Positions 4,099 to 22,378 of a stretch of 22,378 nt of DNA are shown here, in pieces. Each line of letters starts with the position of its first letter. Position 1 is the first letter of the stretch. The stretch comes from a virus. Taxonomy: Duplodnaviria > Heunggongvirae > Uroviricota > Caudoviricetes. The translations under genes were made by a program, and so were the position numbers. Location of the stretch: the IMG/VR virus record IMGVR_UViG_2721755651_000013, one strand, 5' to 3'. The notes under the pieces are model-generated. The model was not told the origin of the DNA. It saw nothing but the letters and a program-made list of their open reading frames with translations, and ran no database searches.

Positions 4099-4111
4099 TG
4101 TGCGGCCCTCC

Positions 4112-6020: not shown

Positions 6021-6054
6021 GAATACTCCTGAATAAGGGTGAATAGTGGTGAGG
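6021..6054. repeat. Three GAATA motifs at 10-bp phasing ending in GGTGAATAGTGGTGAGG; iteron-like
   Basis: gaatactcct gaataagggt gaatagtggt: GAATA at 6021, 6031, 6041 (helical phasing); GGTGAATA resembles the reverse complement of the P4 ori/crr octamer TGTTCACC (one mismatch, as I recall it). Confidence 0.35.
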
Positions 6055-6215
6055 AGCAAAAAACAAATAGCTACGAGGAATAAAAAAACCACCCATTATG
6101 AAAAAATACCATAAATAATTTTATTCCCATGTGAACAGTTATGAACAGTCGATGAATACTGCCATGCCAACCCTTCACCTTATAACCTTCTGTATTACCT
6201 ATTTTTTTTACCTAA

Positions 6216-6235
6216 GTGAATAGTAGTGAATAGTT
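6216..6235. repeat. Tandem 10-bp direct repeat GTGAATAGTA/GTGAATAGTT (iteron-like, same motif as 6039..6047)
   Basis: Two adjacent copies of GTGAATAGT seen directly; the same 9-mer also occurs at 6039..6047. Location in the alpA-sid intergenic region suits a replication or regulatory protein-binding array. Confidence 0.4.
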
Positions 6236-6312
6236 AAGGTAAGTCTGAAACAGCCTTAGTTAAACGAGGCCTTTTCTGGCTAGCCAAAAGAGGTCCGGGG
6301 CGGTTCAGTCTT

Positions 6313-6380
6313 TGTCTTGTCGCTCGCACAATGGCGTTCAATGGCAGCTTTGTATGCATCACAGCACAATTGACACCACG
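6313..6380 (+). promoter_or_regulatory. Putative Delta/Ogr-activated late promoter (Psid-like) with a TGT-N12-ACA dyad
   Basis: TGTcttgtcgctcgcACA at 6313..6330 and a second TGT-N12-ACA at 6351..6368; the first dyad is centred about 80 nt upstream of the sid ATG, i.e. near -55 if transcription starts about 25 nt upstream; CACAAT as a possible -10 at 6365..6370. The TGT-N12-ACA spacing is the known P2/P4 late-activator site pattern. Confidence 0.45.
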
Positions 6381-6400
6381 ACAAACCACTAGGTGCTGAC

Positions 6401-7153
6401 ATGACAATCCCAGAACAGAACAATAACCCGATCGTTGAAATTTCTATCCCTGTTTCGACGCAACAGGCGCTTGAGAAAGTGAATGCCACCAAATCTGCAT
6501 GGCTTGAAGCACGTCGTCAGCAAAAAGCGGCAGCGGATAATATTGCGACAATCCGCCAGCGCCGCGCTGAAATGGAAGCCACGACGAACGCCCTGAATGA
6601 GGAGTGGCGCACGCTATTTCGTGAAAGTCAGGGCGTAGTCTCAAAGGAAATGAAAAAACTGCGCACGGAAATTGCGCTGGGACGAGAAACGCTTGAGGAT
6701 TTTGATGAGCTGCTGGCGGCTCAGGAAAGCGAAAATGCACTTTTGCCGCAGGAGGCTGCGGAATTAGCCGGAAAGTATATCCACGCGCACGACACCCTTG
6801 TGGGTATTCGCGCAAAACAAATCTGGGAAGATTTTATGCAGTCGCATGGAAAAGCACTAATCCAGACACTAAGCCTGCTCAAATCAACAATGGGCAGGGA
6901 AGCCAGCGCAGTTGTCGGTGTGGTGCATTCAGTTAATGACCCGGACACACTGCTGAAAGATTTTATTCATAAACATATCACCAGACCGGCTCTGACTAAC
7001 GATGCGATGCCCGAACAGGACCCCGTGTTTAAACTGGCGGGAGTTGCCCCGGATTATGCGGCCCGTCTGGATTTCAGTAATAAACTCTCTCCAGCAGCTA
7101 TGCATAAAATGAAGGTTCGTCAGGAACGTGCTGAGAAGGAGAAAGCAGTATGA
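6401..7153 (+). CDS. sid: Sid-like capsid size-determination (external scaffold) protein
   Basis: 250 aa (P4 Sid is about 244 aa); first gene after the late promoter; shares the AWL...DFMQ.HG.AL motif with the next ORF, consistent with Sid and Psu being related; AGGTG Shine-Dalgarno. Confidence 0.65.
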   Translation: MTIPEQNNNPIVEISIPVSTQQALEKVNATKSAWLEARRQQKAAADNIATIRQRRAEMEATTNALNEEWRTLFRESQGVVSKEMKKLRTEIALGRETLEDFDELLAAQESENALLPQEAAELAGKYIHAHDTLVGIRAKQIWEDFMQSHGKALIQTLSLLKSTMGREASAVVGVVHSVNDPDTLLKDFIHKHITRPALTNDAMPEQDPVFKLAGVAPDYAARLDFSNKLSPAAMHKMKVRQERAEKEKAV

Positions 7154-7701
7154 TGGCCCGAGTCACTCCAGACCAAGCGCTTATCAGTTTTAGAAATGCC
7201 CGTATTCTGTGGGCTGGACATAGTGAGAGCCGAAAAGCCGTTGAACAACAGATAGAATCACTCCTCACTGCCATGGAAAAACCAGCAGATTATGCTCGAC
7301 AGCTCGAATTACAGCGGGAACATCTGGATGTGCTGAAATGGCAAATTAACTGTGCTGCGCGCGAATGCATTTACTCGCAGCATCAACTGATGGAGGCCTG
7401 CACAGAAGACGCTCTCAGCAATTTTATGCAGGCGAATGGAGCAGCCCTGACATCTGCACTGGCTCCGTTCCTGAAGGGGCGCGGAGGGGTTGACGTTGCG
7501 TCCCGTATATTACGCAATGCTCTGGTTCGCCAGCTGGCAATAACACCGCCTGAAATTGCCGGGGATTATCGTATGATTCTGGATGAATCCGGTGTGATGC
7601 CTGACCCCATGATGGTTCGTGATTGCCAGAGCTCTTACACCCCTGCACAACAACTGCGCTTTCAGCAACGTCTGGATTACATTAACGGCATGCAGGAGTA
7701 A
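7150..7701 (+). CDS. psu: Psu-like polarity suppression / capsid decoration protein
   Basis: 183 aa (P4 Psu about 190 aa); FMQANGAALTSALAPFL and a C-terminal TPAQQ segment resemble what I recall of P4 Psu; ATGA start/stop overlap with sid. Confidence 0.7.
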   Translation: MMARVTPDQALISFRNARILWAGHSESRKAVEQQIESLLTAMEKPADYARQLELQREHLDVLKWQINCAARECIYSQHQLMEACTEDALSNFMQANGAALTSALAPFLKGRGGVDVASRILRNALVRQLAITPPEIAGDYRMILDESGVMPDPMMVRDCQSSYTPAQQLRFQQRLDYINGMQE

Positions 7702-7706
7702 TATTA

Positions 7707-7979
7707 ATGGCACTTAAATGTCCCGAATGCGGTACGACGGCACACGCCAGAACCTCCGCCTATGAAGCACCATCGGTTAAACGCTCATGGTATCAGTGCC
7801 AGAATCTTGAATGTTCCTACACATTTACCGCACTGGAAAGTGTGGATACGATAATCATGAAGCCCCGGCGCAATGAACAGGAATCAGAGAAAGCACAAAT
7901 GCCGGAAAAACAACAGCAAACTCTCAATCGCTATGGCTCCGCGTCAAAGCTGTCAAGCCGTCAGCAAATTCCTGTCTGA
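7707..7979 (+). CDS. delta: Delta/Ogr-family zinc-finger late transcriptional activator
   Basis: N-terminus CPECGTTAHARTS...YQCQNLECSYTF is the C2-C2 Ogr/Delta zinc-finger signature; GGAG Shine-Dalgarno 7 nt upstream. Confidence 0.85.
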   Translation: MALKCPECGTTAHARTSAYEAPSVKRSWYQCQNLECSYTFTALESVDTIIMKPRRNEQESEKAQMPEKQQQTLNRYGSASKLSSRQQIPV

Positions 7980-8000
7980 TTAGCAAAAAAAGCCCACGTA

Positions 8001-8026
8001 ATCCCGGTCCAGTACTGGGATTTTTT
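8001..8026 (+). terminator. Rho-independent terminator of the sid-psu-delta operon
   Basis: atccc...tccagtactgga palindrome...gggat followed by tttttt, about 20 nt after the delta stop. Confidence 0.55.
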
Positions 8027-8052
8027 ACGCCTTTTCCCTGGCTGGCCTGAGA

Positions 8053-8100
8053 GCGCATGAGTGCATGTCTATAGCGCATGAAAACGCATGATTCTCATGC
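8053..8100. repeat. Cluster of CGCATGA / TGCATG / TCATGC repeats (possible cos/terminase or regulator binding array)
   Basis: gcgcatga gtgcatg ... gcgcatga aaa cgcatga ttc tcatgc: five CATG-containing repeat units in 48 bp, in the position where P4 carries cos (between the late operon and int-side cargo). Confidence 0.3.
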
Positions 8101-8332
8101 ACCATTTTTGACGCGAAAGCCCTTGTGTGGTGGCTTCTGAGACGATTTGCGGAATGCATGAAAACCAGTCTGTTAAGCGAAGCGAGCAGGCGTGGGGGGC
8201 TGCGCGCGCTAAGGGGTTAGATTATAAAATATCAAACGCCGGTGAGATCCATTATTGTGGAACCACCCGAAGGAAGTGTAGAGGCGAAAGTACCCAAAAT
8301 AATTTTGCAAATTATTTAGAAATGAACTGAGC

Positions 8333-8358
8333 GCTCGAAACGAAATATAATTTCGAGC
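8333..8358 (-). terminator. Hairpin gctcgaaa-N10-tttcgagc just 3' of the minus-strand cargo operon
   Basis: Perfect 8-bp inverted repeat with 10-nt loop located about 30 nt after the stop of the last cargo ORF (8389); no strong U-tract. Confidence 0.4.
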
Positions 8359-8388
8359 ACCCCAATTAGCAGTTATATTTTTAATGTA

Positions 8389-8955
8389 TTAAACAGGATA
8401 AAAACCAGAGCTTCCATTCTTATTTAAGTTATGGATTTTATTTGCATCATTAATTTTTATTTGGAACGTCGGACCTTTATTCTCAAGAATTACAATCTGG
8501 AAATTATAGTCCCTTTTGATTAATGCGTGATAAAATGAATCACTGAGACTGACGCTATTAACATCCGATAGAGAACCCCCTCTATCTTTATCAAAGTGCG
8601 TCACTAATGGACTATCAAGCACAACAAATCCAATGAATGGATTCCCTTTTCTTGATAAAAATTCCGCAAAGCAAATGGTAAATATAGCATGCATTACTGC
8701 ACGGGTACCTTTACCAAACATTCCTCGGCGTTTCCCATTGATATTAAAGTCATATGTATCTTCGTCAAATCGCACTTTGTTATCTTTAGAATTTTCAAAA
8801 TTTATATCATTCAAAAAGTCTTGCATCGCTATTTCTATATCATACAAATCAGCTACTGTTAAGGAGTCAAAGTCCTCGGCGGAGTATTTAAGTTCGTCAA
8901 CATCATCTTCTTTATCTTGTAATGAAGATAGAATGCTATGTTTTGTGTGATCCAT
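8389..8955 (-). CDS. C-terminal ABC/SMC-type ATPase head segment (putative Walker B/D-loop region) of the cargo ATPase
   Basis: 188 aa; GMFGKGTRAVMHAIF (signature-like) followed by NPFIGFVVLDSPLVTHFD (hydrophobic strand + Asp, Walker-B-like); TAATG stop/start overlap with the upstream ORF; no Shine-Dalgarno; reading frame is open about 20 codons upstream of the ATG. Confidence 0.5.
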   Translation of the reverse strand: MDHTKHSILSSLQDKEDDVDELKYSAEDFDSLTVADLYDIEIAMQDFLNDINFENSKDNKVRFDEDTYDFNINGKRRGMFGKGTRAVMHAIFTICFAEFLSRKGNPFIGFVVLDSPLVTHFDKDRGGSLSDVNSVSLSDSFYHALIKRDYNFQIVILENKGPTFQIKINDANKIHNLNKNGSSGFYPV

Positions 8956-9545
8956 TAAAAGATTGTCTTTATATTCATAAAGTGATTCAAGAGATGAATG
9001 TATTGTTTTATATTTTTATCTTCTAACGTCTTAAAATCACTTTTTTCTGATTGATAAATTTCATTAACATCATTTTTTCTTAACATAATTAATTCATGTT
9101 CGCGAACATTAGATCCGATTGATTCAATTAATCCTTTCAGCTGGCTTTTGATTTTCAATTTTTCTGCATTACACGACAAAAAACAATCATCATATGATAT
9201 TTCATTTTCTTTTTTTTGCGGTGTATTACAGAACTCACAATAAATATCTGCAAAATTATTTAAATAGAAATTCGCCTGTGATACAACATCTATTCTTTGT
9301 AGATCTATAAAGTATTGGTCTTTAAGAAGACTAAATCTTTCAATGAGTAATGATAAGTATTTTTCCCTGTCACTGATTGAATATAATTCATCACTTAACT
9401 CTTTTAATAATTGCTTCTTATCATCAAGTGCATCAACAATACCTTTCAATATATCTTTCGATGATTCAATATCTTGCTCTACTTTCTCAAGTTCTCTTGA
9501 AACAATGACTTGATCATATTCAGGATAAATTAATTGCGCTTTCAA
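8955..9545 (-). CDS. Coiled-coil segment of the cargo SMC-like ATPase (no canonical start; same frame as the upstream ORF, separated by one TAA)
   Basis: 196 aa, highly charged (E/K/D/L-rich) helical heptad-like sequence; ORF-track start is TTG with no usable Shine-Dalgarno spacing; in frame with 9576..10208. Confidence 0.45.
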   Translation of the reverse strand: MKAQLIYPEYDQVIVSRELEKVEQDIESSKDILKGIVDALDDKKQLLKELSDELYSISDREKYLSLLIERFSLLKDQYFIDLQRIDVVSQANFYLNNFADIYCEFCNTPQKKENEISYDDCFLSCNAEKLKIKSQLKGLIESIGSNVREHELIMLRKNDVNEIYQSEKSDFKTLEDKNIKQYIHLLNHFMNIKTIF

Positions 9546-9575
9546 TTCCTCATAAATATTTGCAATTTGATTTTT

Positions 9576-10208
9576 TTAAAAATATCTTGCTTTTTTATTT
9601 GGTTTTTCTGCTAAGGAGTTAGTATCATCTCTCTGAGTTAAAAGGAATTTAAATTCAGACTTTCTTTTTGTCTCCTCGCTAGGAATATCAGAAAGAATTA
9701 ACGACTTCTCAGTTAACACTCTTAATTCATCAATACAAAAAAATTCAAAAACATTATTAAGATTAAATTTATGAAGAGTATTACTTAAGTTTGTTCTTAC
9801 TTTAGCCTCTTTGAAATTCAACCTACCATAAAAGTATGATGAAAAACTCTTTTTAGACGAAGCACTTTTGGAAAAAACCATCAACAGATTAGCTTCACTA
9901 ACATTTTCAATGCTCGAATCATATAATCTGTAATGGGCGCTATCCTGAAGAGACCTCTCAATTGTCATTACCCTACCTTGAAAATTAAATTCCAGATAGG
10001 CTAAATCATAACCTTGAGCATGATCGATATCTTTATTTTTTAGTTTTTCACTCCCTAATAAATATCGAATCAAATAATATATGTATGTTTTTCCAGAGTC
10101 AGAACCACCATATAAAATAGTCAATTTAGAACCAAATTCAATTATAGCATCTAATTTATTGAATCCGGTTACCTTTATTTTTCTGAACGTAAAAAAATTG
10201 TCATTCAT
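9576..10208 (-). CDS. N-terminal ABC/SMC-type ATPase head with Walker A (GGSDSGKT)
   Basis: MNDNFFTFRKIKVTGFNKLDAIIEFGSKLTILYGGSDSGKTYIYYL is the canonical N-terminal strand plus P-loop layout of RecF/SbcC/SMC-like ABC ATPases; start moved to the ATG at 10206..10208, which overlaps the upstream stop (ATGAATGA). Confidence 0.65.
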   Translation of the reverse strand: MNDNFFTFRKIKVTGFNKLDAIIEFGSKLTILYGGSDSGKTYIYYLIRYLLGSEKLKNKDIDHAQGYDLAYLEFNFQGRVMTIERSLQDSAHYRLYDSSIENVSEANLLMVFSKSASSKKSFSSYFYGRLNFKEAKVRTNLSNTLHKFNLNNVFEFFCIDELRVLTEKSLILSDIPSEETKRKSEFKFLLTQRDDTNSLAEKPNKKARYF

Positions 10209-10659
10209 AATTAAATTCCATATCATATTTGCCAATTTTATTTTTTATAATTGATTGCAACTGCTCATCAGGAATATCACTATATAACTTAACCACCAAA
10301 TTTATATTATGCTCCATCTGCGCAACATATTCATTATGTAGAGAATTTGTAAATGCATATGTTTTTTCAGAAGCTTTATATACAAAACCACGATGTGTAT
10401 AAATTTTTGAGGCTAGTTCATAGCCTTGCAACAAAGCCAATGATTCTAAAACAATCTCTCGTTTTAGGGCTAACTGAGCATCTCTACGGGGTATTGGAGG
10501 ATGAAGACTAATCTCTTCAGGTAAAAAATCCTTAAGATTTACTAAAATAAAATCAAAACAAATAAGCCGTTCAAGGCTTAATGAAGAAGGATAAATAGCG
10601 ACGAGCACTTTCGCCATTCGACATGCCACTTCTAAACTTGAATTATAAATTCTAACCAT
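10201..10659 (-). CDS. Small alpha-helical protein, putative middle component (LmuC-like) of a three-component ATPase system
   Basis: 152 aa when started at the ATG at 10657..10659 (TAATG overlap with upstream stop, GGTGAG upstream); located between the nuclease-like ORFs and the ATPase, as in ABC-3C/Lamassu type II loci. Assigned by position and size only. Confidence 0.5.
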   Translation of the reverse strand: MVRIYNSSLEVACRMAKVLVAIYPSSLSLERLICFDFILVNLKDFLPEEISLHPPIPRRDAQLALKREIVLESLALLQGYELASKIYTHRGFVYKASEKTYAFTNSLHNEYVAQMEHNINLVVKLYSDIPDEQLQSIIKNKIGKYDMEFNYE

Positions 10660-11276
10660 TATCTCACCGTCCAAATTACTTCACCATCATTAACCAAATG
10701 ATGGCATATTCCTTTTTTATCATTTGCTTCACATATTTTTGATAGTACTGAATGTGCAATTGGTGTCAGAACAGCCTGCTTCAAGACTGCATTACACCTA
10801 ATAAATGCATAATTATGGTCTTCATAAAAGACGGGTTCAATTGAAGATGAAATGTAACATTTCAATGCTTTGAATACATCATCTTTAAATACTTCGCGGA
10901 CAAAAACCTCAAGCGAAGATGCAAAATAAAAATCATTTCTACTATTATTAAAGTGTCGTCTGTATGGATCATCAAGCTCTAAGAAAGAACTATAAGTTTT
11001 ATTTCCATGCTCTGAATAGGCTTGAAGCAGTGCATTAACATATACAGACTCTTTTTTTGAATTGTATGTTGGAATTTCATTTGGAGGGATTCTCACGACA
11101 TACAGCTCGTTAAAGTACTTAAAATAAAGGTGTGTATTTGCAATATCATTTAAAATCAATGATAAGGGTAGAGAGTAAAAAATACTAAAATCAAAATCCT
11201 CAATATATTTTTTTATTTCATCATCTAATGGAATATCAATCTTTTTAGTTATTTTTTTGAAATTGCTGAATCCCAT
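10659..11276 (-). CDS. Hypothetical protein; probably the C-terminal part of the effector, reachable by a -1 shift from 11249..11665
   Basis: 205 aa; only one Met (the start) and no Shine-Dalgarno; overlaps the upstream ORF by 28 nt in the -1 frame across an A7 tract. Confidence 0.5.
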   Translation of the reverse strand: MGFSNFKKITKKIDIPLDDEIKKYIEDFDFSIFYSLPLSLILNDIANTHLYFKYFNELYVVRIPPNEIPTYNSKKESVYVNALLQAYSEHGNKTYSSFLELDDPYRRHFNNSRNDFYFASSLEVFVREVFKDDVFKALKCYISSSIEPVFYEDHNYAFIRCNAVLKQAVLTPIAHSVLSKICEANDKKGICHHLVNDGEVIWTVR

Positions 11277-11665
11277 GAATCAAGGACTGCTTTTTTAAGC
11301 TCGTTTTTATTTTTCAATAAATTAGAAAATGTAGTAGATAAATCATAGGGTGCCACAAAAAAGTACTTCTGAGGGATGGGATAATCACCATTCAGAGTAA
11401 AATAGATAAGTTTTCCAAACTCAACTACAACATCAGAGAACCCTAAACTTTTTTTGTACAGTTTGCATTGATAATTATCCCAAGAATAACCTTCTACGTT
11501 AGGATCCGATTTATATCCAACAACGTCTCTACCTTTATCTCCAGCTCCTCCCAAACGTTCGCTCCACGGGTAATCATCTGATTTACAGACAATAAGCCAA
11601 TCATGGACAAATACCTCCCATTGTTCATCATCCCATGTCAATATTTCCGAAAGTGGTTGAGACAC
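11249..11665 (-). CDS. Mrr-like PD-(D/E)xK nuclease domain protein (putative effector N-terminal domain)
   Basis: 138 aa; WEVFVHDWL...GGAGDKGRDVVGY...YQCKLY matches the E ... G-D-x-G-x-D ... Q-x-K pattern of Mrr-type restriction-endonuclease catalytic domains; GTG start with AAGGAG 7 nt upstream, embedded in the 3' end of int. Confidence 0.6.
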   Translation of the reverse strand: MSQPLSEILTWDDEQWEVFVHDWLIVCKSDDYPWSERLGGAGDKGRDVVGYKSDPNVEGYSWDNYQCKLYKKSLGFSDVVVEFGKLIYFTLNGDYPIPQKYFFVAPYDLSTTFSNLLKNKNELKKAVLDSWDSAISKK

Positions 11666-11668
11666 AAA

Positions 11669-12850
11669 TTAACTCCTTTTTAGTCTTTCAAATATCAAAT
11701 TACTGTACCAGTCCATCATAGACTTCCTTCCACTAAAATATTGAGCATGGTTATAAGTCCCCCTAATAGAATTTTTATCTACATGAGCCAACTGGATTTC
11801 AATCCAAGCACTCTCAAAACCTTGCTCATGCAGGATTGTAGAAAGGGTATGACGAAAACCATGTCCAGTGACTTTTCCTCCATACCCAATACGCTTAATG
11901 GCTTGATTTATACTCGCTTCGCTCATTGGCCTATTCGGATCGTTCCGCCCTGGAAAAACATAACGATAGTTCCCTGTCATGATCTTGAGTTCATTGAGTA
12001 AATCTACCGCTTGAGATGATAAGGGCACAAGATGTGGCCTACGCATTTTCATCCTTTCAGCAGGAATTTCCCAAATAGCGTTATCCAGATCAAATTCTTG
12101 CCATAATGCCGCGCGTAATTCGATGGTTCTCACACCCGTAATCATCAGTAATTTCGTGGCTATCTGGACAAGCTTACTCCCGGAGTAACCCTCTAAGGCA
12201 CGTAGAAAATCAGGTATCTCATCAGCTTTTAGGAATGGGAAATGATTGGATTGGTGTACTTCGAGAGCGCTGGAGAGATCAGCCGCAGGATTGTACTCCG
12301 CCCTACCCGTTGCAATTGCGTAGCGAAACACTTCGGAGCAACGCTGCCGCACTTTGCGCATTTTCTCCAACGCACCACGTTTCTCAATTTTACGCAGAAC
12401 GTTCAGCAGCTCTAGCGGTTTAATCTCTCCCACAGGCCTTGTTCCGACATAAGGAAAAATGTCGTTCTTAAACGCTTCCATGATGTCTGATGCATATCCC
12501 GCCGACCATTTAGCAGATTTAAGTTGATGCCACTCTCTGGCTATCTTTTCGAAGGCGTTCTCTGACTCTGTTTGCATAGCTAGCTTTTGCTCTTTTCGAA
12601 CCTCACTAGGGTTCTTTCCTTCTGCCACAAGTTTTCGAGCTTCATCACGACGGGAACGAGCATCGGCAAGGGTGATCGTTGGGTAAACACCAAGCGAGAT
12701 CATTTTGGGTTTGCCGGCATAGCGATAGCGGAACCGCCAACTCTTGCTTCCATTAGGTTCTATAAGTAATGACAACCCTAGCCCATCTCCAAATGTATAG
12801 GCTTTAGCTTCAGGCTTAGCGCGGCGAATCTGCATATCGTTTAAAGGCAT
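11669..12850 (-). CDS. int: P4-type tyrosine integrase
   Basis: N-terminus MPLNDMQIRRAKPEAKAY...DGLGLSLLIEPNGSKSWRFRYR is the P4-integrase N-terminal signature; C-terminal HGFRHT...Y catalytic motifs; start moved to the ATG at 12848..12850 (393 aa); adjacent to a tRNA-derived att. Confidence 0.9.
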   Translation of the reverse strand: MPLNDMQIRRAKPEAKAYTFGDGLGLSLLIEPNGSKSWRFRYRYAGKPKMISLGVYPTITLADARSRRDEARKLVAEGKNPSEVRKEQKLAMQTESENAFEKIAREWHQLKSAKWSAGYASDIMEAFKNDIFPYVGTRPVGEIKPLELLNVLRKIEKRGALEKMRKVRQRCSEVFRYAIATGRAEYNPAADLSSALEVHQSNHFPFLKADEIPDFLRALEGYSGSKLVQIATKLLMITGVRTIELRAALWQEFDLDNAIWEIPAERMKMRRPHLVPLSSQAVDLLNELKIMTGNYRYVFPGRNDPNRPMSEASINQAIKRIGYGGKVTGHGFRHTLSTILHEQGFESAWIEIQLAHVDKNSIRGTYNHAQYFSGRKSMMDWYSNLIFERLKRS

Positions 12851-12897
12851 GTGTATAGGAATCCAGACCGAACAGGAACATATACACAATCCTATAC
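12851..12897. repeat. 10-bp inverted repeat GTGTATAGGA-N27-TCCTATACAC immediately upstream of int
   Basis: Exact inverted repeat seen directly, with a third TATACACA copy between; a likely int promoter/operator or arm-type site. Confidence 0.4.
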
Positions 12898-13012
12898 ACA
12901 TTCAGTACCGGATTCTACTGGATGGTTACGGACTACTATGGACTTAAAAGAATAAAAAATGTTATAAATCAGAGATTTTATGGACTAATACGGACGTTTG
13001 AGGAAGTTGAGA

Positions 13013-13405: not shown

Positions 13406-13771
13406 GTGCAGGATGTCATGTTAGGAGCGATAGAAAAACGCTTTGGCGATAAAGTACCGGAACAGTCCATCCAGTGGCTGACAGATAACGGTTCAGCGTA
13501 TAGAGCGCATGAAACACGGCAGTTCGCCAGAGAGTTGAATCTGGAGCCCTGCACAACGGCAATCAGCAGTCCTCAGAGTAATGGAATTGCAGAAAGGTTC
13601 GTGAAAACGATGAAGGAAGACTACATCGCGTTCATGCCGAAACCGAATGTAAGAACGGCATTGCATAATCTTGCAGTGGCGATCGAACATTACAATGAAA
13701 ACCATCCGCACAGTGCGTTGGGTTATCGCTCTCCGCGAGAATATCGACGTCAGCGGGTAACGTTAACTTAA
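13406..13771 (+). pseudogene. IS3-family (IS2-like) transposase OrfB C-terminal fragment
   Basis: 121-aa ORF ends ...[23 protein letters not shown]...[19 protein letters not shown], the typical C-terminus of IS3-family integrase-core transposases; the N-terminal part and OrfA are absent, so this is a remnant. Confidence 0.65.
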
Positions 13772-13812
13772 GATACCCCCCCTGTCTGGAAATAAGGGGG
13801 CAAGAACAATGA

Positions 13813-14556
13813 TCAGATTCCCTGGTGAGTAAGAATTTTACTTTCTGAACTCCTCTGAGAGTATTGACTTGGAGAAACACCAAAATAACGTCTAAATACA
13901 TAAGTAAAGTATGAGACACTGGCATAACCACAGACCTTAGCTACTTTACTAATAGGATAACAACGAGTGCTGAGTAAATATTCAGCCATTTGCATCCTCT
14001 CATCAAGTATGATCTTACTGAATGATACCCCCTCTTCTTTCAATTTCCTCTTTAGTAAACTTTCGCTGAGATATAATCTTGATGATATATCCTTAAGACG
14101 CCATGGTGCAGATAAATCCGTATGAATAATCGTTTTAACTTTAGCCCCTGTGCTTTTCAAACATCCAAACAGAAATACTCCAAATTGTTTTTCAGAAGAA
14201 AATGCAGAGAGACATGTAAAAGCAATAGACTCATCAAAAATTTCTATGTATTCAGCACAGTGATTAGCCCAACTAATTAATCCTTTAATTAAACTGAAGT
14301 CAGCAAAGTTTATTTTTAAATAAGATGGATATTCCCTACAATCAGAAATATCCCTTAAGTTATTAGCTTTCAAATAGCGACTAATAAACTCAGCGCCAAA
14401 ATCCGCCACTATCACTCTTTCAGGATATGTCAGGAAAAAATCTCTAGAGCTAGAGTCGACAAGTACAGATGAACCTCTCTCCAGAAACACACTCTCTTTT
14501 CCGAAATAAACATCAAAGGACTCCAAAATCAATATAACTGAACATGTAGTTGCCAT
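13813..14556 (-). CDS. AraC/XylS-family transcriptional regulator (Rns/AggR/GadX-like size and layout)
   Basis: 247 aa, AT-rich; C-terminal ISKVAKVCGYASVSYFTYVFRRYFGVSPSQY is the second helix-turn-helix of the AraC family. Confidence 0.8.
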   Translation of the reverse strand: MATTCSVILILESFDVYFGKESVFLERGSSVLVDSSSRDFFLTYPERVIVADFGAEFISRYLKANNLRDISDCREYPSYLKINFADFSLIKGLISWANHCAEYIEIFDESIAFTCLSAFSSEKQFGVFLFGCLKSTGAKVKTIIHTDLSAPWRLKDISSRLYLSESLLKRKLKEEGVSFSKIILDERMQMAEYLLSTRCYPISKVAKVCGYASVSYFTYVFRRYFGVSPSQYSQRSSESKILTHQGI

Positions 14557-15200: not shown

Positions 15201-15432
15201 ACCCGATCATCAAACGAAACATAAAATTAGCTCACATTATGAGGAAAGGTATCTTTTTGCGCTATGTAAATTCAAAGGGTTAGCCTCATTTTCCCGATGG
15301 CTTTCTCAACACTACTAGTTGTGAGCCCTTGCAATGTTCATTAATATACGTCTCACAAATAATTCACAGATATTGCAAAATGGATATTACTGAACCGCCC
15401 CGGGTTTCCTGGAGAGTGTTTTATCTGTGAAC

Positions 15433-16319
15433 TCAGGCTGCCAGATCATCGTTTCCGATGGAAGCATAATAAGCTTTTTCTGCTTCTGCCGGAGGAGTAT
15501 GGCCCAGCCTTCCCAGCAATCGTCGATTGTTATACCAGTCCACCCACGTTAGTGTGGCCAGTTCCACTTCTGCACGGTTTTTCCAGCTCTTACGGTGTAT
15601 TACCTCCGCTTTGTAAAGACCATTGATGCTCTCAGCCATCGCGTTGTCATACGAGTCGCCTGTACTCCCTGTTGATGCCAGTAATCCGGCTTCTTTTAGT
15701 CGCTCCGTATAGGCCAGTGACACATACTGAGAGCCTTTATCGCTGTGATGGATGGTGCCAGACGGACGACGGGCCCACAACGCCTGCTCCAGCGCATCCA
15801 GCACGAATGTCGTTTCCATAGACGATGAGACCCGCCACCCCACGATGTATCCGGCAAACACATCAATGATAAACGCCACATAGACGAAGCCCTGCCATGT
15901 GCTGACGTAAGTAAAATCAGCCACCCACAGCTGGTCAGGTCGTTCTGCCACGAACTGACGGTTTACGCGGTCGCCTGCGGCAACGGCTTTCCGGCTGATG
16001 GTCGTACGGACCTTTTTACCCCGGAGAACACCGGCAAGTCCCATAACCGCCATGAGACGTGCCACTGTACATCTGGCCACCCTGATTCCTTCCCGTAACA
16101 ACTGACGCCAGACTTTACGCACACCGTACACCTGATGATTTTCATCGTATACGCGCTGTATCTCTCTCTTCAGCCAGTCGTCGTGCTGCGCACGGGCACT
16201 GCGTTTATCCGGATGATGTCGCTGTTGCTGACAATGGTAATACGTTGACGGGGCAATATGCAGTTCGCTGCATACCGGTCCGACCCCGTACTGCTCACGC
16301 AGCTTATCCAGCAGTGGCA

Positions 16320-16323
<4 letters not shown>
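15433..16323 (-). CDS. IS3-family transposase OrfB (DDE integrase core)
   Basis: 296 aa with the characteristic IS3 OrfB layout; overlaps orfA in the -1 frame across an A6 tract (TGGAAAAAATGATG), the usual frameshift window. Confidence 0.9.
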
Positions 16324-17466
<1,143 letters not shown>

Positions 17467-17523
17467 ATCTTCAAGTGGTAAGCATAAACCGCAGCACGAT
17501 CTTGCATACGACGTGCTACGGTT

Positions 17524-18078
17524 TCATTTATCTCCGGCCGGAAACTTCTTATACAGTGTCGATACACCAACATCATAGATGATCGCTACCTTCTGGCGAG
17601 GAATTCCTGCTGCAATTAATCGTCCGGCCTGCGCCCATTGTTCTGGTGTAAGTTTGGGACGACGTCCACCAATTCGTCCCTGTGCGCGAGCAGCTTCCAG
17701 TCCAGCTTTTGTTCGTTCAACAATCAGTTCTCGTTCCATTTCAGCCAGGGCCCCCATCACATGAAAGAAAAAGCGCCCCATTGGGGTACTGGTATCAATA
17801 GCATCCGTCAGGCTGCGAAAATTAACGCCACGTTCGCGCAACTCCTCAACCAGAATGACCAGATGCCGCATACTGCGCCCCAGCCGATCCAGTTTCCAGA
17901 CAACCAGAGTGTCACCTGCCGATAATGTCCTGAGCAGTTTTTTCAGTCCCGGCCTTTCGGACTTTGTACCGCTTATCTTGTCTTCAAAAATCAGCTCGCA
18001 TCCTGCACAGTTCAGCGCATTACGTTGTAGATCTGTGTTCTGGTCATTTGTTGACACACGTACATAGCCAATAAGCAT
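17524..18078 (-). CDS. pin: Serine-recombinase DNA invertase of the Pin/Gin/Hin/Cin family
   Basis: MLIGYVRVSTNDQNTDLQRNAL... with catalytic Ser and C-terminal HTH; matches what I recall of e14 Pin; 184 aa when started at the ATG at 18076..18078. Confidence 0.9.
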   Translation of the reverse strand: MLIGYVRVSTNDQNTDLQRNALNCAGCELIFEDKISGTKSERPGLKKLLRTLSAGDTLVVWKLDRLGRSMRHLVILVEELRERGVNFRSLTDAIDTSTPMGRFFFHVMGALAEMERELIVERTKAGLEAARAQGRIGGRRPKLTPEQWAQAGRLIAAGIPRQKVAIIYDVGVSTLYKKFPAGDK

Positions 18079-18104
18079 GGTAGATCTCCCTGACAAAAGC
18101 AGGA

Positions 18105-18602
18105 ATGATGCCATTTGCTCGTTATTTCTGCATTTTCATAAACGTTGGTTTGGGAGAAGGTGCTCCAGCTATTGGCGTTCCGTTCTTCTGGCCGTCCGCT
18201 GCAATGCCAAATACTGTAATCGACAGCTGGTCCTGTATGGTGTTTTTGAAGTTCAACGGCGCGAAATTCTCTGCCACTGATTATCCTGTGCTGGCGAAAG
18301 TGTTTCCTTCGCTGGTATTACCTGAAGCCCGCGGTGATTTCATTCGTATCTGGGATGACGGGCGAGGTGCAGACGGTGGTCGCGAATTATTAAGCTGGCA
18401 GGCAGCTACAAACTTTTCTCAGTTTGCCGGGAATATAGGCGAAGGTGCGGGACACGCAATTAACTTTCATGATGGCATCGCCGGAAATCAGCCAGGATTT
18501 TCACGATTTAATTTCACCAGTAACTCTGTGGGTGATGGTGTGAATTTTGTTGCAGTCAGACCGCGAAATATTGCATTTAACTTTCTGGTGAGGGCTAAAT
18601 AA
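18105..18602 (+). CDS. Tail-fibre C-terminal variable segment (Sv/StfE'-like gene segment inside an invertible region)
   Basis: ...KFSATDYPVLAKVFPSLVLPEARGDFIRIWDDGRGADGGR...NIAFNFLVRAK is the conserved tail-fibre tip motif of Mu S / e14 Stf / T4 gp37-type fibres; no own promoter or start expected for a gene segment. Confidence 0.65.
   Translation: MMPFARYFCIFINVGLGEGAPAIGVPFFWPSAAMPNTVIDSWSCMVFLKFNGAKFSATDYPVLAKVFPSLVLPEARGDFIRIWDDGRGADGGRELLSWQAATNFSQFAGNIGEGAGHAINFHDGIAGNQPGFSRFNFTSNSVGDGVNFVAVRPRNIAFNFLVRAK
18133..18158. other. Putative invertase crossover site (gix/hix/pix-like), TTTTCATAAACGTTGGTTTGGGAGAA
   Basis: 26-bp imperfect dyad with half-sites ending AAAC / GTTT around a central dinucleotide, adjacent to the pin start, resembling hix/gix sites as I recall them. 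Confidence 0.4.
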
Positions 18603-19195
18603 TGAAACCTGTTTTTGATGAAAATGGGCTGGCTACAGTGCCGGGCGATATGCGTTGTTTTTATTATGATGCTGAAACATCTGAGTATACGGGCTGGTCT
18701 GATGAATATATTAATACTGGCGTAAGTATGCCCGCCTGTTCCACTGGTATTGACCCTGGCGAAAACATTCCGGGAAGAGTGGCAGTATTTACAGGTAAGG
18801 GATGGAGCCATGAAGAAGACCATCGCAATGAGACTGTTTACTCAATCGAAAATGGCGCAGCTGTTACAGTGGATTATATCGGTGCCATCAAAGACGGTTA
18901 TGTCACGATTTCACCGTTAACGCCATACGATAAATGGGATGGTGAGAAATGGGTGACAGACACTGAGGCACAACACAGTGCCGCAGTAGACGCGGCAGAA
19001 GCACAGCGCCAATCACTGATTGATGCAGCAATGGCTTCCATTAGTCTGATTCAGCTGAAGTTACAGGCCGGACGGAAACTGACTCAGGCAGAAACAACCC
19101 GACTTAACGCCGTGCTGGATTACATTGACGCGGTGACGGCAACAGATACCAGCACCGCGCCGGATGTCATCTGGCCTGAACTGCCGGAGGCGTAG
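18602..19195 (+). CDS. tfa: Tail fibre assembly protein (Tfa/U-like)
   Basis: 197 aa, TAATG coupling to the fibre segment; C-terminal ...LDYIDAV...DTS.APDVIWPELP motif typical of Tfa chaperones. Confidence 0.75.
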   Translation: MKPVFDENGLATVPGDMRCFYYDAETSEYTGWSDEYINTGVSMPACSTGIDPGENIPGRVAVFTGKGWSHEEDHRNETVYSIENGAAVTVDYIGAIKDGYVTISPLTPYDKWDGEKWVTDTEAQHSAAVDAAEAQRQSLIDAAMASISLIQLKLQAGRKLTQAETTRLNAVLDYIDAVTATDTSTAPDVIWPELPEA

Positions 19196-19619
19196 GCCAT
19201 TCAATATCTGGCGCACCGGAAGTATCGACCAGCTCCAGTGCGTCCAGATAATCCAGCCACAAATTATATTGCGTCAGTTCGTCACCTTTCAGACGACCAA
19301 TAGCCGCTTTACCGGGCCATTGCTTACTGTTCATGTATTCGTTGGCCTGGTTAATTAGTAGCTGTCTTTCTGATTCAGTAATTTCAATAAGCTCTTCATG
19401 CGTGGGTGGAGGAATATCTGCCCACGCAGGCAGCCCATCATCTCCGGCAATACGGATTTTTCCTTGTGGCGGTTCAGCCATAAACTCACTGATAATATTT
19501 TGATTTACTTCCTTAGCGTCTGATAAATCCCATCCCTCTGATTTATATTTATCAATCATATCCACAGGGAAAAAAGCATTATGCCTTGCGCTATAAACAT
19601 ATTCGTCCATATAAATCAC
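19167..19619 (-). CDS. tfa: Alternative tail fibre assembly protein (Tfa'/U'-like) on the opposite strand
   Basis: 150 aa with the same C-terminal Tfa motif (LWLDYLDAL...DTSGAPDIEWPTPP), tail-to-tail with the other tfa as in invertible G/P segments; its partner fibre segment is missing (IS copy 2 starts at 19674). Confidence 0.65.
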   Translation of the reverse strand: MIYMDEYVYSARHNAFFPVDMIDKYKSEGWDLSDAKEVNQNIISEFMAEPPQGKIRIAGDDGLPAWADIPPPTHEELIEITESERQLLINQANEYMNSKQWPGKAAIGRLKGDELTQYNLWLDYLDALELVDTSGAPDIEWPTPPAVQAR

Positions 19620-19727
19620 CCTGAATAAAATTACTCACCAACAGCCCACCAACTGTAATTCATCGATACCGTGTGAACCGCCCCGGGTTTCCTGGAGACT
19701 AAACTCCCTGAGAAAGAGGTAAACAGG

Positions 19728-20054
19728 ATGACTAAAAATACTCGTTTTTCCCCCGAAGTCCGTCAGCGGGCGATTCGTATGGTTCTGGAAAGTCAGGATG
19801 AATATGACTCACAGTGGGCGGCAATTTGTTCCATTGCCCCAAAGATTGGCTGTACGCCGGAGACTCTGCGTGTCTGGGTTCGCCAGCATGAGCGGGATAC
19901 CGGGGGCGGTGATGGTGGGCTCACCAGCGCTGAACGTCAGCGTCTGAAAGAGCTGGAACGTGAAAATCGTGAACTGCGCCGCAGTAACGATATCCTTCGC
20001 CAGGCTTCCGCTTATTTTGCGAAGGCGGAGTTCGACCGCCTCTGGAAAAAATGA
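19728..20054 (+). CDS. IS3-family transposase OrfA
   Basis: Identical 108-aa protein to 16320..16646. Confidence 0.9.
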
Positions 20055-20941
20055 TGCCACTGCTGGATAAGCTGCGTGAGCAGTACGGGGTCGGACCGGT
20101 ATGCAGCGAACTGCATATTGCCCCGTCAACGTATTACCATTGTCAGCAACAGCGACATCATCCGGATAAACGCAGTGCCCGTGCGCAGCACGACGACTGG
20201 CTGAAGAGAGAGATACAGCGCGTATACGATGAAAATCATCAGGTGTACGGTGTGCGTAAAGTCTGGCGTCAGTTGTTACGGGAAGGAATCAGGGTGGCCA
20301 GATGTACAGTGGCACGTCTCATGGCGGTTATGGGACTTGCCGGTGTTCTCCGGGGTAAAAAGGTCCGTACGACCATCAGCCGGAAAGCCGTTGCCGCAGG
20401 CGACCGCGTAAACCGTCAGTTCGTGGCAGAACGACCTGACCAGCTGTGGGTGGCTGATTTTACTTACGTCAGCACATGGCAGGGCTTCGTCTATGTGGCG
20501 TTTATCATTGATGTGTTTGCCGGATACATCGTGGGGTGGCGGGTCTCATCGTCTATGGAAACGACATTCGTGCTGGATGCGCTGGAGCAGGCGTTGTGGG
20601 CCCGTCGTCCGTCTGGCACCATCCATCACAGCGATAAAGGCTCTCAGTATGTGTCACTGGCCTATACGGAGCGACTAAAAGAAGCCGGATTACTGGCATC
20701 AACAGGGAGTACAGGCGACTCGTATGACAACGCGATGGCTGAGAGCATCAATGGTCTTTACAAAGCGGAGGTAATACACCGTAAGAGCTGGAAAAACCGT
20801 GCAGAAGTGGAACTGGCCACACTAACGTGGGTGGACTGGTATAACAATCGACGATTGCTGGGAAGGCTGGGCCATACTCCTCCGGCAGAAGCAGAAAAAG
20901 CTTATTATGCTTCCATCGGAAACGATGATCTGGCAGCCTGA
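20051..20941 (+). CDS. IS3-family transposase OrfB
   Basis: Identical 296-aa protein to 15433..16323. Confidence 0.9.
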
Positions 20942-21109
20942 GTTCACAGATAAAACACTCTCCAGGAAACCCGGGGCGGTTCATAACCAATTGTATTTAT
21001 TTTAAAATTAATAGGTGCAACTCACTAAACAACGCAATTCTGATCTCTCGATCACCTCCCAAGCCACACAACCCTGCAAAAAATAAATCTATATAAAAAA
21101 CATACAGAT

Positions 21110-21180
21110 AACCATCTGCGGTGATAAATTATCTCTGGCGATGTTGACACAAATACCACTAGCGGTGATACCAAGCACAT
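21110..21180 (+). promoter_or_regulatory. Lambda-like OL3-OL2-OL1 operators and PL promoter
   Basis: AACCATCTGCGGTGATA (21110..21126), TATCTCTGGCGATGTTG (21130..21146), TACCACTAGCGGTGATA (21154..21170) match lambda OL 17-mers with 1-2 changes each; -35 TTGACA at 21144..21149, -10 GATACC at 21167..21172. Confidence 0.8.
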
Positions 21181-21211
21181 CAGCAGGACGCACTAACCAC
21201 CATGAAGGTGA

Positions 21212-21242
21212 TGCTCTTAAAAATTAAGCCCTGAAGAAGGGC
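21212..21242 (+). promoter_or_regulatory. nutL-like antitermination site (boxA TGCTCTTA, boxB hairpin GCCCTGAAGAAGGGC)
   Basis: boxB is a perfect 5-bp stem with GAAGA loop, identical to lambda boxB as I recall it; boxA has one mismatch. Confidence 0.75.
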
Positions 21243-21399
21243 AGCATTCAAAGCAGAAGGCTTTGGTGTGTGTGATACGAAACGAAGCATTGGCCGGAAG
21301 TGCGAATCCGGATTAGCAGCCAATGTGCCATTGCGGGGTGTTTTCGTTCAGGACTACGACTCCCACACACAACCAAAGCTAACTAACAGGAGAATCCAG

Positions 21400-21513
21400 A
21401 TGGATGCACAAACACGCCGCCGCGAACGTCGCGCAGAGAAACAGGCTCAATGGAAAGCAGATCGGATTCTGGCTTCAACATTTCGCAGGAATGCAACTAA
21501 GAGACATTACTGA
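21400..21513 (+). pseudogene. N: Truncated lambda N-like antiterminator (first ~21 codons [20 protein letters not shown], then unrelated sequence and stop)
   Basis: AGGAG 8 nt upstream of ATG 21400; arginine-rich boxB-binding motif intact; similarity to N ends near 21462 and the ORF stops at 21511..21513. Confidence 0.7.
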
Positions 21514-22378
21514 ATCAAAAATTTATTCAGCAATGCAGAAAATGACGAACCGGCGTCATGAGGAAAACTGGAAACTCAGGGCAGAAGCATGCAGAAAAAA
21601 AGGGAAACCTGTTCCAGAATACACGCCAAAACCAGCGTCCGTTGCAACGAAGGCTACGCATCTTTCATTTATAAAGGCCCTGCTAAGAGCCGCAGAGCGT
21701 GAATGGAAAATGCTCGATAAGGCACCAATTATTAAAGTGCCTCAACCAAAGAATAAACGGATCCGCTGGCTGGAGCCCCATGAAGCACAAAGGCTGATTG
21801 ATGAATGTCCGGAGCCATTAAAGTCTGTTGTTGAATTTGCACTGGCAACAGGCTTAAGACGCTCGAACATCATCAACCTTGAATGGCAACAAATAGATAT
21901 GCAGCGCCGGGTGGCATGGATAAACCCGGAAGAGAGTAAATCAAACCGCGCAATTGGCGTTGCGCTGAATGATACTGCATGTCGCGTATTGAAAAAACAA
22001 ATCGGTAATCATCACCGTTGGGTATTTGTGTACAAGGAAAGCTGTACCAAACCAGACGGAACGAAAGCGCCAACAGTAAGGAAGATGCGGTATGACGCAA
22101 ACACAGCCTGGAAAGCGGCGCTGAGACGGGCTGGTATTGATGATTTCAGATTTCACGACTTGAGACACACCTGGGCAAGTTGGCTGGTTCAAGCCGGAGT
22201 CCCGTTGTCAGTGTTACAGGAAATGGGAGGCTGGGAGTCTATCGAAATGGTTCGTCGATATGCTCACCTTGCACCTAATCACCTTACCGAACACGCACGG
22301 CAAATAGACTCGATCCTGAACCCATCGGTCCCAAATTTGTCCCAGTCAAAAAATAAGGAAGGTACTAATGATGTGTAA
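21491..22378 (+). CDS. Tyrosine recombinase / phage integrase family protein, apparently 5'-truncated at the junction with the N' remnant
   Basis: C-terminal [14 protein letters not shown]...[15 protein letters not shown] has the R...HxxR...Y catalytic signature; the ORF-track start at 21404 lies in the alternate frame of the N' remnant, so the first plausible ATG is 21491; no N-terminal arm-binding domain. Confidence 0.65.

Follow-up and report, generated by a model that had tools for sequence, protein, structure and literature searches.

In lambda, in the phages ev099 and phi458 and in the prophage of strain 214-4, the genes around the left immunity region follow the native order cI-OL/PL-N-…-xis-int. 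The integrase gene natively ends the PL operon, and a promoter aimed at int therefore needs a deletion only. The prophage of strain 214-4 encodes the same cI protein together with a full-length N, and cattle strain 120 carries a near-full-length integrase gene of SfV type (annotated as 372 aa) at thrW; phi458 has this same type of integrase, which is also the type found at the locus described here. The closest described system is Sp1 of Escherichia coli O157:H7 Sakai, known as CP-933H in EDL933 (S-loop 16 / O-island 8), which with Sp2 forms a pair of tandem prophages at the thrW site. Its annotation reads ‘prophage Sp1, lambda-like phage’ and includes an integrase pseudogene (intD, ECs_0271), an N fragment (ECs_0272) and cI (ECs_0274). 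In Sakai, the Sp1 integrase has been scored as defective, and circularisation, replication and packaging of Sp1 were not detected (Asadulghani et al. 2009, PMC2669165).

Our window is the whole 22,378-nucleotide stretch of viral DNA under analysis, and its right-hand end is very probably attL, the thrW-proximal end of the cryptic lambdoid prophage Sp1 (CP-933H) of E. coli O157:H7. That degree of confidence applies to our reading as a whole, namely that the joining of a lambda-type PL region to an integrase fragment is the scar of an old internal deletion that has since decayed further, and is not a rewired switch. E. coli O157:H7 strain 319 is 100% identical to the entire window, and thrW-proA-proB lies directly 3′ of the window end. 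In all fetched O157 loci, the tRNA-Thr gene (thrW) starts 14 nt past the stop codon of the integrase remnant (int′), which coincides with the window end; the tRNA gene expected as the attachment site of a thrW-specific integrase thus directly adjoins it. RefSeq likewise annotates the integrase remnant as a pseudogene within prophage Sp1. A 100-mer spanning the junction between the N fragment (N′) and int′ is carried by 215 complete E. coli genomes, and every one of the examples listed is O157:H7 or has a genome of O157 size. Sakai Sp1 and EDL933 CP-933H share the locus, the junction and the 14-nt distance to thrW with the window, and Sakai differs from it by only three bases across 20986–22378. 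Unlike Sakai, however, the window strain has an IS629 element 126 bp upstream of OL3 and an additional IS629 copy at 15391–16700, has lost ECs_0273 through ECs_0280, and carries a T-to-C change in the PL −10 element and a G-to-A change in OL2. The locus itself is already known, as annotated pseudogenes of the well-studied Sp1/CP-933H; a literature search with the locus tags ECs_0271 and ECs_0272 returned comparative-hybridisation and transcriptome mentions only, and no functional study was found. The features of the region, all on the plus strand, are as follows.

19674–20983, + strand: IS629/IS1203 copy 2, 1,310 bp, annotated as IS3-like element IS1203; left bound of the remnant
20984–21109, + strand: lambda-type spacer from the end of the rex/cI operon to OL3, from alignment to lambda, Sp1 of Sakai, Z563 and strain 272
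21110–21126, + strand: OL3 operator, AACCATCTGCGGTGATA, identical to lambda
21130–21146, + strand: OL2 operator, TATCTCTGGCGATGTTG, with a derived G-to-A at 21141; one mismatch, strain-specific
21144–21172, + strand: PL promoter; −35 TTGACA at 21144–21149, 17-bp spacer containing most of OL1, −10 GATACC at 21167–21172
21154–21170, + strand: OL1 operator; one mismatch, G8A, common to all Sp1 copies
21179, + strand: predicted PL +1, placed from lambda coordinates
21212–21242, + strand: nutL; boxA at 21212–21220 and boxB at 21228–21242
21388–21392, + strand: Shine-Dalgarno sequence upstream of the N ATG
21400–21513, + strand: N′ open reading frame, 37 aa by translation, with the N ATG at 21400
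21460, + strand: deletion junction, located with the parent sequences side by side
21461–22378, + strand: 5′-truncated SfV-type (thrW-specific) integrase gene (int′), residues 83–387, by sequence comparison

Aligned over 20982–21460, the window is 91.9% identical to lambda (35300–35775) and 96.5% identical to phage ev099. It shares with the lambda immunity-left region three 17-bp cI operators in the order OL3-OL2-OL1 and with lambda spacing, as well as OL3 itself, the −35 hexamer, boxB, the N ribosome-binding site and the first 20 codons of N. By contrast, rexAB, tL1, the downstream early genes and cI are missing, and identity to N ends after codon 20. The initial annotation had described a lambda-like block directly after IS copy 2, running from the end of rexB through OL3-OL2-OL1, PL and nutL into N′. 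This description holds for 20984–21460 except at its rexB end: the block contains no rexB coding sequence, as homology begins at lambda 35775, 50 bp downstream of the stop codon of rexB, which ends at 35825. The same annotation saw a strong repressible promoter combined with an antitermination site; of these, the promoter is no longer intact in the window strain. nutL is present in the leader, with a boxA that reads TGCTCTTAA (in lambda, CGCTCTTAA) and a boxB hairpin, GCCCTGAAGAAGGGC, identical to that of lambda nutL. PL, on the other hand, retains its −35 hexamer and spacer but has a T-to-C change at 21172 that leaves GATACC in place of GATACT, and the window holds no sigma-70 PL of the form TTGACA, 17 bp and GATACT overlapping OL2 and OL1. 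A consensus promoter scan that detected PL in Sakai (10 of 12 matches) did not find PL in the window. Both the −10 and the OL2 changes are derived relative to lambda and Sakai, and the mutant OL2 base (21141A) occurs in only 11 genomes. Judged by its sequence, GATACC would be expected to have a promoter-down effect. An Rfam search of the whole window gave no match in the region from OL/PL to int′; its matches elsewhere in the window were the ALIL pseudoknots of both IS copies and C4/isrK in a P4-like element.

The first 20 codons of N′ (21400–21459) correspond to the arginine-rich, boxB-binding peptide of lambda N and are the only ones from N; the frame then reads through 17 int codons, out of phase with int, before it stops. 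Pfam N36 (PF11438) matches N′ residues 2–21 (E = 3.8e-10), and Sakai ECs_0272 is a longer, GTG-started version of the same frame. No complete N, which comprises 107 aa in strain 214-4, is encoded in the window. N′ retains the boxB-binding peptide only, without the parts for antitermination, and is presumably inactive. The junction is a single G common to the N parent (…AAAGCAG|CAAAT) and the int parent (…AAAGCCG|GATCGG), and the half-matches of the junction-spanning 100-mer meet at 21454–21460. The end of N similarity had been placed at about 21462, after some 21 codons; the exact values are 21460 and codon 20. We considered a microhomology-mediated deletion, because the BLAST matches overlap by 7 nt, and rejected it: the parents share one in-register base beside an out-of-register AAAGC.

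Beyond the junction, 21460/21461–22378 is 98.5–99.4% identical at the DNA level to the int genes of SfV, SfII, SfIV, SfI and phi458, whose orientation and distance to thrW match those of int′. Homology begins at int residue 83 of 387 (protein alignment start 82/83), and the int′ protein is 98% identical to SfV Int 82–387. As the initial annotation had it, the sequence runs out of frame from N into a tyrosine recombinase that lacks its N-terminus: int′ is in the +1 frame relative to N from 21460 on, whereas the catalytic domain is present, with Pfam Phage_integrase (PF00589) matching int′ residues 121–292 over the full model length (E = 2.3e-47). The catalytic motifs, including VRRYAHL, are kept and identical to those of SfV Int, from which int′ differs by six substitutions across the catalytic domain, all other residues being retained. 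In contrast to the full-length integrases of the SfV group, int′ has no xis upstream, lacks residues 1–82 and has no translation start of its own, its sole start being a fortuitous +1-frame ATG contributed by N. This ATG, at 21404, lies 4 nt past the N ATG, which it overlaps as ATGGATG, sits behind the same Shine-Dalgarno sequence and opens a 324-aa reading frame. By analogy, residues 1–82 of SfV-type Int are presumed to serve arm-type DNA binding; in the domain search, DUF6538 gave a sub-threshold match only. PGAP labels int′ a pseudogene missing its N-terminus, and a PDB sequence search with int′ returned HP1 integrase and Xer proteins but not lambda Int, to which its homology is distant.

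The C65 fragment of lambda Int, residues 65–356, comprises the core-binding and catalytic domains. Fragments of this type cleave and religate core sites but are not known to support arm-dependent integration or excision. The int′ product, if translated, would presumably resemble C65 in lacking the arm-binding N-domain while keeping the core-binding and catalytic domains. The position of the ATG at 21404 makes low-level production of an arm-less recombinase possible; we infer that int′ is inactive.

The window contains no cI gene, and so no repressor cognate to its operators. Sakai, Z563, 272 and AR-0427 have cI together with the genes around it; the window strain lacks them. The cI of other O157 strains is identical to lambda cI at 233 of 237 residues (98%), and that of Sakai lies ~0.6 kb upstream of the OL/PL block; in some O157 strains, the best cI match is partial and C-terminal. 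Because an OL/PL 80-mer occurs in one copy per genome in the 11 genomes with the window allele, a second lambda-immunity region in these genomes is unlikely. IS copy 2 lacks a target duplication (its flanks are GTG and TAA) and its left inverted repeat is a hybrid, GGGTTTCC in place of GGAAATCC. Strain 272, which retains cI, has this IS at an identical right-hand site, where the TAA duplication is intact. IS copy 2 marks an IS629-linked deletion of cI-cro-cII-O′-P′ and part of the tail-fibre segment; the Sakai genes that the window strain has lost include cI, cro, cII, O′, P′ and the tail fibre gene. The idea that PL mutated in response to the loss of cI fails, as AR-0427 and strain 272 have the −10 T-to-C change yet keep cI; the promoter mutation is therefore earlier or independent. 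F6667, 272 and 2010C-3142 carry IS629, Z563 has it in the opposite orientation, and AR-0427 and Sakai lack it. The history of the element is not tree-like, and excision followed by re-insertion is plausible.

We propose that the ancestor was a phage of lambda immunity with an SfV-type integrase and the order cI-OL/PL-N-(early-left genes)-xis-int-attL(thrW). A single illegitimate deletion with 1 nt in common at the junction would have fused codon 20 of N to codon 83 of int, removing the rest of N, all delayed-early genes of the left operon, xis and the 5′ end of int, and leaving N′ and int′ both as dead fragments. In the lineage of the window, decay then continued through loss of the final T of the PL −10 element, insertion of IS629 126 bp upstream of OL3, an IS629-linked deletion that took cI, cro, cII, O′ and P′, and the G-to-A change in OL2. 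Given this decay, the element in the window is most likely weak in transcription. The junction presumably arose within a single phage, as phi458 already joins this integrase type to a lambda-like early-left operon and one phage is enough. A deletion across two tandem prophages, an SfV-like one adjoining thrW and one of lambda immunity beyond it, would leave the same product, so that the window sequence cannot separate the two histories. We regard this tandem origin as unlikely, even though thrW in strain 120 holds an SfV-like prophage with this integrase and an XRE-type, non-lambda immunity, the closest relatives of the Sp1 immunity region, ev099 and 214-4, use a lambda-type integrase at the lambda attachment site, and Sp1 and Sp2 themselves stand in tandem; between N′ and int′ there is no second att site and no remnant of a second phage.

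The initial annotation had left open either a deletion scar or a rewired, repressor-controlled recombinase, and the evidence favors the scar: the native order of the PL operon, the lost 5′ end of int, the pseudogene annotation and the published defects of Sp1 all point to it. Under the other reading, PL, OL and nutL would have been co-opted to produce an arm-less recombinase and/or the N′ peptide under repressor-controlled, SOS-inducible expression and to the benefit of the host. The 324-codon int′ frame, still open and with a nearly unchanged catalytic domain, argues against an inert scar, as does the clear mitomycin C induction of residual Sp1 early genes in Sakai (PMC2669165), from which it follows that the PL/PR-cI switch is alive in strains that keep it. 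We nevertheless consider a co-opted module very improbable. A simple deletion of the native PL operon yields the identical layout, int′ is truncated and does not share the frame of the one start codon that is well placed, and the failure to detect Sp1 circularisation, replication or packaging (PMC2669165) also counts against it. Retention of the junction in 215 genomes might seem to favor maintenance but is uninformative, because O157:H7 is a young clone. Moreover, the PL −35 and −10 hexamers have been hit independently in different lineages and the window strain has no cI; both observations suggest that the module is being lost rather than maintained. The probability of a laboratory artefact, in which a PL-nutL-N′ cassette of the kind common in expression vectors entered the sequence by contamination or engineering, is negligible. 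Only 91.9% identity to lambda, a chromosomal position beside thrW and an identical arrangement in many independent O157:H7 assemblies, hundreds in all and from several countries, rule out a vector and uphold the earlier view of a natural lambda relative. With the deletion scar as the preferred reading, the apparent pairing of a promoter with a truncated recombinase comes down to a lambda PL operon that has collapsed, a textbook case of prophage decay. Anyone reusing the sequence of this strain should note the −10 mutation in its PL and the loss of its repressor gene.

Across O157:H7 genomes, we also observed at least nine independent substitutions in the OL/PL and OR operator cores. In a comparison of fourteen strains over 4.7 kb, 9 of 10 substitution sites fall within about 170 bp of operator/promoter DNA, and none was found in cI, cro, cII, the leader, N′, thrW or the compared part of proA. 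The OL/PL sites are 21132, 21141, 21146 (−35 TTGACA to TTAACA), 21160 and 21172 (−10 GATACT to GATACC); those in OR comprise two in OR2 and two in the OR2-OR1 spacer. Counts of OL and OR alleles sample the ~215 genomes by way of identity bands, spread samples and allele-specific 40-mers. The surroundings are clonal: 16.8 kb of Sp1/Sp2 contain no SNPs and 20 kb of flank contain three. We rejected gene conversion by another lambdoid prophage as the source of the OL/PL changes, as the 80-mer is single-copy in each genome and a donor allele was not found.

This excess could be due to selection or to a mutational hot spot. It could mean that expression of the remnant affects fitness, which would fit poorly with an inert scar, and we tentatively raise the possibility, which we think the less probable one, that the Sp1 immunity switch is under recurrent selection in O157:H7 and is not simply decaying. 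One reading under selection is that leaky or SOS-induced transcription from PL and PR is costly and is therefore silenced or retuned again and again in different lineages; possible sources of this cost are the N′ peptide, the arm-less integrase and antisense transcription into thrW-proBA. Such silencing would have allowed the later loss of cI in the lineage of the window. Alternatively, the host could be adjusting cI levels so as to stay immune to lambda-type phages. More broadly, the point of possible weight is that the operator cores of a dead prophage gain mutations far faster than neighbouring DNA in a clonal pathogen. If selection is responsible, the locus would show in nature how a host silences or retunes a leftover phage switch over and over; if a mutational hot spot is the cause, it would be a naturally occurring case of elevated mutation in bacterial DNA bound by a repressor.

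The window is 100% identical over all 22,378 bp to E. coli O157:H7 strain 319 (NZ_CP018241.1), and coverage is 94–100% in 212 complete genomes, those among the matches listed being O157:H7 or O157-sized. Because the Sakai annotation of the interval reads ‘prophage Sp1, lambda-like phage’ (300042–310627) and then ‘prophage Sp2, P4-like phage’, and because tRNA-Thr thrW, proA and proB lie directly 3′ of the window end, the feature is the end of Sp1 nearest to thrW; Sp1 is also named CP-933H (in EDL933) and S-loop 16/O-island 8. It belongs to a fully described object and is already known. O157 lineages vary here, with ECs0272–0280 absent from lineage II in comparative hybridisation (PMC1890555).

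The feature is a collapsed lambda PL operon. Window 20982–21460 aligns with lambda 35300–35775 at 91.9% identity and with phage ev099, to whose immunity region that of Sp1 is closer than to any other intact relative's, at 96.5%, with every landmark in register with lambda.

Landmarks of the OL/PL–nutL–N′ block (lambda register; PL +1 inferred)
21110–21126, OL3
21130–21146, OL2
21144–21149, PL −35 (TTGACA)
21154–21170, OL1
21167–21172, PL −10
21179, PL +1
21212–21220, nutL boxA
21228–21242, nutL boxB
21388–21402, N ribosome-binding site and ATG

Alignment, landmarks, frames and domains confirm the initial annotation in its central proposal, a lambda-like OL/PL–nutL–N′ block joined to a truncated recombinase. 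The rexB end that it also placed here is not present: the lambda match starts 50 bp past the rexB stop codon, and rexB coding sequence is therefore absent from the block. Homology to N ends at 21460, after codon 20, and is followed by 17 codons to a stop (37 aa in all); the abrupt, out-of-frame end had been seen correctly, and had been put at about 21462, with about 21 codons of N. The only Pfam match in this ORF is the N36 boxB-binding peptide. The C-terminal regions of lambda N are needed to engage NusA and RNA polymerase, and N′ is best read as an arginine-rich boxB-binding peptide that would lack them.

From the junction (21460/21461) to 22378, DNA identity is 98.5–99.4% to the int genes of Shigella phages SfV, SfII, SfIV and SfI and Escherichia phage phi458. 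The int′ protein aligns with residues 82–387 of the 387-residue SfV Int (98%) and has a complete PF00589 catalytic domain but not the first 82 residues, so that the SfV comparison and domain search bear out the reading of a 5′-truncated recombinase without its N-terminal domain. PGAP labels int′ ‘site-specific integrase, incomplete, missing N-terminus’, and in Sakai int′ and the N fragment are the intD pseudogene ECs_0271 and ECs_0272, respectively. The int′ reading frame is shifted by +1 from that of N, and an ATG at 21404 opens a 324-aa ORF. This second ATG is supplied by the N start context ATGGATG (21400–21406) and is in frame with int′ after the deletion by chance; the ORF stands behind the Shine–Dalgarno sequence of N, and the ECs_0271 pseudogene uses the same coordinates. 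At best, int′ may yield a recombinase without the arm-binding part, comparable to the C65 fragment of lambda Int, from this poorly placed +1 ATG, with low-level expression possible. Judged from sequence, int′ is probably not a functional integrase, having neither an N-terminal domain nor a start codon of its own.

At the junction, the parents share one in-register base (N …AAAGCAG/CAAAT versus int …AAAGCCG/GATCGG, slash at the breakpoint). A 100-mer spanning it is whole in 215 genomes, and other E. coli genomes among the matches listed carry only its N half or only its int half. The intact lambdoid order, cI–OL/PL–N–early-left genes–xis–int–att, is found in lambda, ev099, phi458 (whose int is of the int′ type) and the strain 214-4 prophage (identical cI protein, full 107-aa N), and in the O157-sized cattle strain 120 an int of this type that is nearly full length (annotated 372 aa) is spaced from thrW just as int′ is. 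The aiming of the promoter at int is therefore native, and a single internal deletion joining N codon 20 to int codon 83 would yield exactly the observed structure. Such a deletion may have occurred within a single phage genome or between two prophages in tandem; both histories would leave the same sequence.

The initial annotation had left two readings, a deletion scar and a rewired, repressor-controlled recombinase. The former is favored by the native operon order and by published tests of Sp1, in which int was scored defective and circularisation, replication and packaging were not found (Asadulghani et al. 2009, PMC2669165). Residual Sp1 early genes were clearly induced by mitomycin C in the same study. 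The window does not contain a functional PL–N module, as there is no intact −10, no N and no cI. A non-functional scar is the best-supported reading of the remnant, and the rewired switch is not supported.

A cognate cI, for which the initial annotation had proposed to look, is present in most O157:H7 strains, about 0.6 kb upstream, but is missing from the window. Upstream of OL, Sakai has cI (ECs_0274; 233/237 identity with lambda cI), cro and cII, together with an O that is frameshifted and a P that is truncated, and all five are absent here. Instead, IS629/IS1203 copy 2 (19674–20983) ends 126 bp upstream of OL3. This copy has no target-site duplication (GTG versus TAA), and its left end is a hybrid: bases 14–16 of the left inverted repeat correspond to the right-end repeat (GGGTTTCC in place of GGAAATCC). 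In strain 272, which retains cI, this IS occupies an identical right-hand site and is still flanked by the TAA duplication. An IS629-linked deletion therefore took away about 3.8 kb, either as an adjacent deletion or through recombination with a second IS copy, and copy 2 marks the event in which cI–cro–cII–O′–P′ were lost. IS629/IS1203 copy 1 (15391–16700), found in this strain alone, is a simple insertion flanked by a TAC target duplication. An IS629 hot spot lies in the few bp upstream of ‘ACCAATTG’ (window 20980–20990; about 24000, 5555–5560 and about 2360 in comparison O157 loci L004, L006 and L011). The element is in + orientation in strains 272, F6667, 2010C-3142 and the window, and in − orientation 2–3 bp away in Z563; in AR-0427 the site is empty. 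Sakai lacks 7 bp (AGCCATA) at exactly this point, which may be the footprint of an excision. No simple tree accommodates both IS629 presence and the 21172C mutation.

In 16.85 kb of Sp2/Sp1 the window shows no substitutions relative to Sakai; the Pin-invertible tail-fibre segment has one substitution and one indel, and 20986–22378 has three substitutions (21141, 21172 and 21761). At 21761 Sakai is derived, because SfV has the window's Ile. The others are G-to-A in OL2 (21141) and T-to-C at 21172, which changes the PL −10 from GATACT to GATACC. In sigma-70 promoters, the final T of the −10 is among the most conserved positions. PL is detected by a consensus promoter scan in Sakai (10/12), and the same scan of the window finds no promoter. 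With this T lost, the scan negative and cI gone, PL, initially described as a strong repressible promoter, is probably neither in this strain. A second lambda-immunity region elsewhere in the genome is unlikely, because each of the 11 genomes with the window allele has a single copy of the OL/PL 80-mer.

Neighboring elements are as follows.

Other features of the window
1765–12901, Sp2, P4-like satellite prophage, 100% identical to Sakai
4902–5135, C4 antisense RNA and isrK matches in Sp2
8389–10235, broken AAA ATPase gene beside the Sp2 defence cargo
10201–11276, Sp2 cargo annotated as an ABC-three-component defence system
11669–12901, − strand, intact integrase of Sp2
17524–18114, − strand, pinE, just upstream of the invertible segment

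Sp2 also carries primase-helicase, Psu and Ogr/Delta homologues. The Pin-invertible segment (18135–19674) is in the orientation opposite to Sakai, and a 25-nt stretch (18135–18159) matches both its ends. The far end of Sp1 (13406–14556) has an AraC-family gene (13813–14556) and a partial IS3-family transposase; because ev099 has the same kind of cargo, an AraC-family regulator and transposase fragments, just past its int/att end (17393–18480 in its locus), descent of Sp1 from an ev099-like phage with a different integrase module is suggested. In strain 120 (NZ_CP028659.1 4352722–4380779), thrW has, instead of Sp1, a different and much more complete SfV/CPS-53-like prophage, whose integrase (annotated 372 aa) appears intact and whose immunity is of XRE type. 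This prophage may represent the ‘lineage II’ state of Zhang et al. 2007, in which ECs0272–0280 were missing by hybridisation and PCR amplification failed.

More broadly, at least nine independent point substitutions occur in Sp1 OL/PL (21132–21172) and OR among O157:H7 genomes. The OL/PL 80-mer (21117–21196) is identical to the Sakai allele in only 173 records, versus 215 genomes with the junction, whereas control 80-mers from the leader (21260–21339) and upstream (21020–21099) are identical in 220 and 281 records. Alleles were sampled, so there are at least those listed here: 21141A with 21172C (11 genomes) and 21172C alone (18), giving GATACC at the −10 in 29 genomes; 21132C (seven records: the 86-24 group, CDC#03-98, ECP19-798, ATCC 43888 and 2010C-3347); 21146A in one genome (F6667), changing the −35 from TTGACA to TTAACA; and 21160C in one genome (2010C-3142). 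Only 146 records match the Sakai OR 80-mer exactly; of seven records sampled among those with one mismatch, six are from O157-sized genomes (three labelled O157:H7), and at least four OR sites vary, two in OR2 and two in the OR2–OR1 spacer (5627–5646 of the Sakai Sp1 locus). Of 14 rows sampled from the 274 records that match the 714-bp cI gene at ≥99%, 13 show 100.0% identity. Across 4.7 kb in 14 strains, 9 of 10 substitution sites fall within about 170 bp of operator/promoter DNA, and O′, cII, cro, cI, ECs_0273, the PL leader, N′, thrW and 5′ proA have none; these strains were chosen for operator 80-mer mismatch and the table is therefore ascertained, the unbiased support being the identical-record counts for operator versus control segments.

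Chromosomal flank divergence is low (3 SNPs in 20 kb). The operator variability could arise from selection or from a mutational hot spot. Two of the OL/PL changes fall on those bases of the −35 and −10 hexamers that are conserved most strongly, a pattern that suggests PL has been silenced repeatedly. The −10 mutation arose with cI present and is not a response to repressor loss, because AR-0427 and 272 carry both the mutation and cI. Operator hypervariability in Sp1 deserves a proper population-genomic test.
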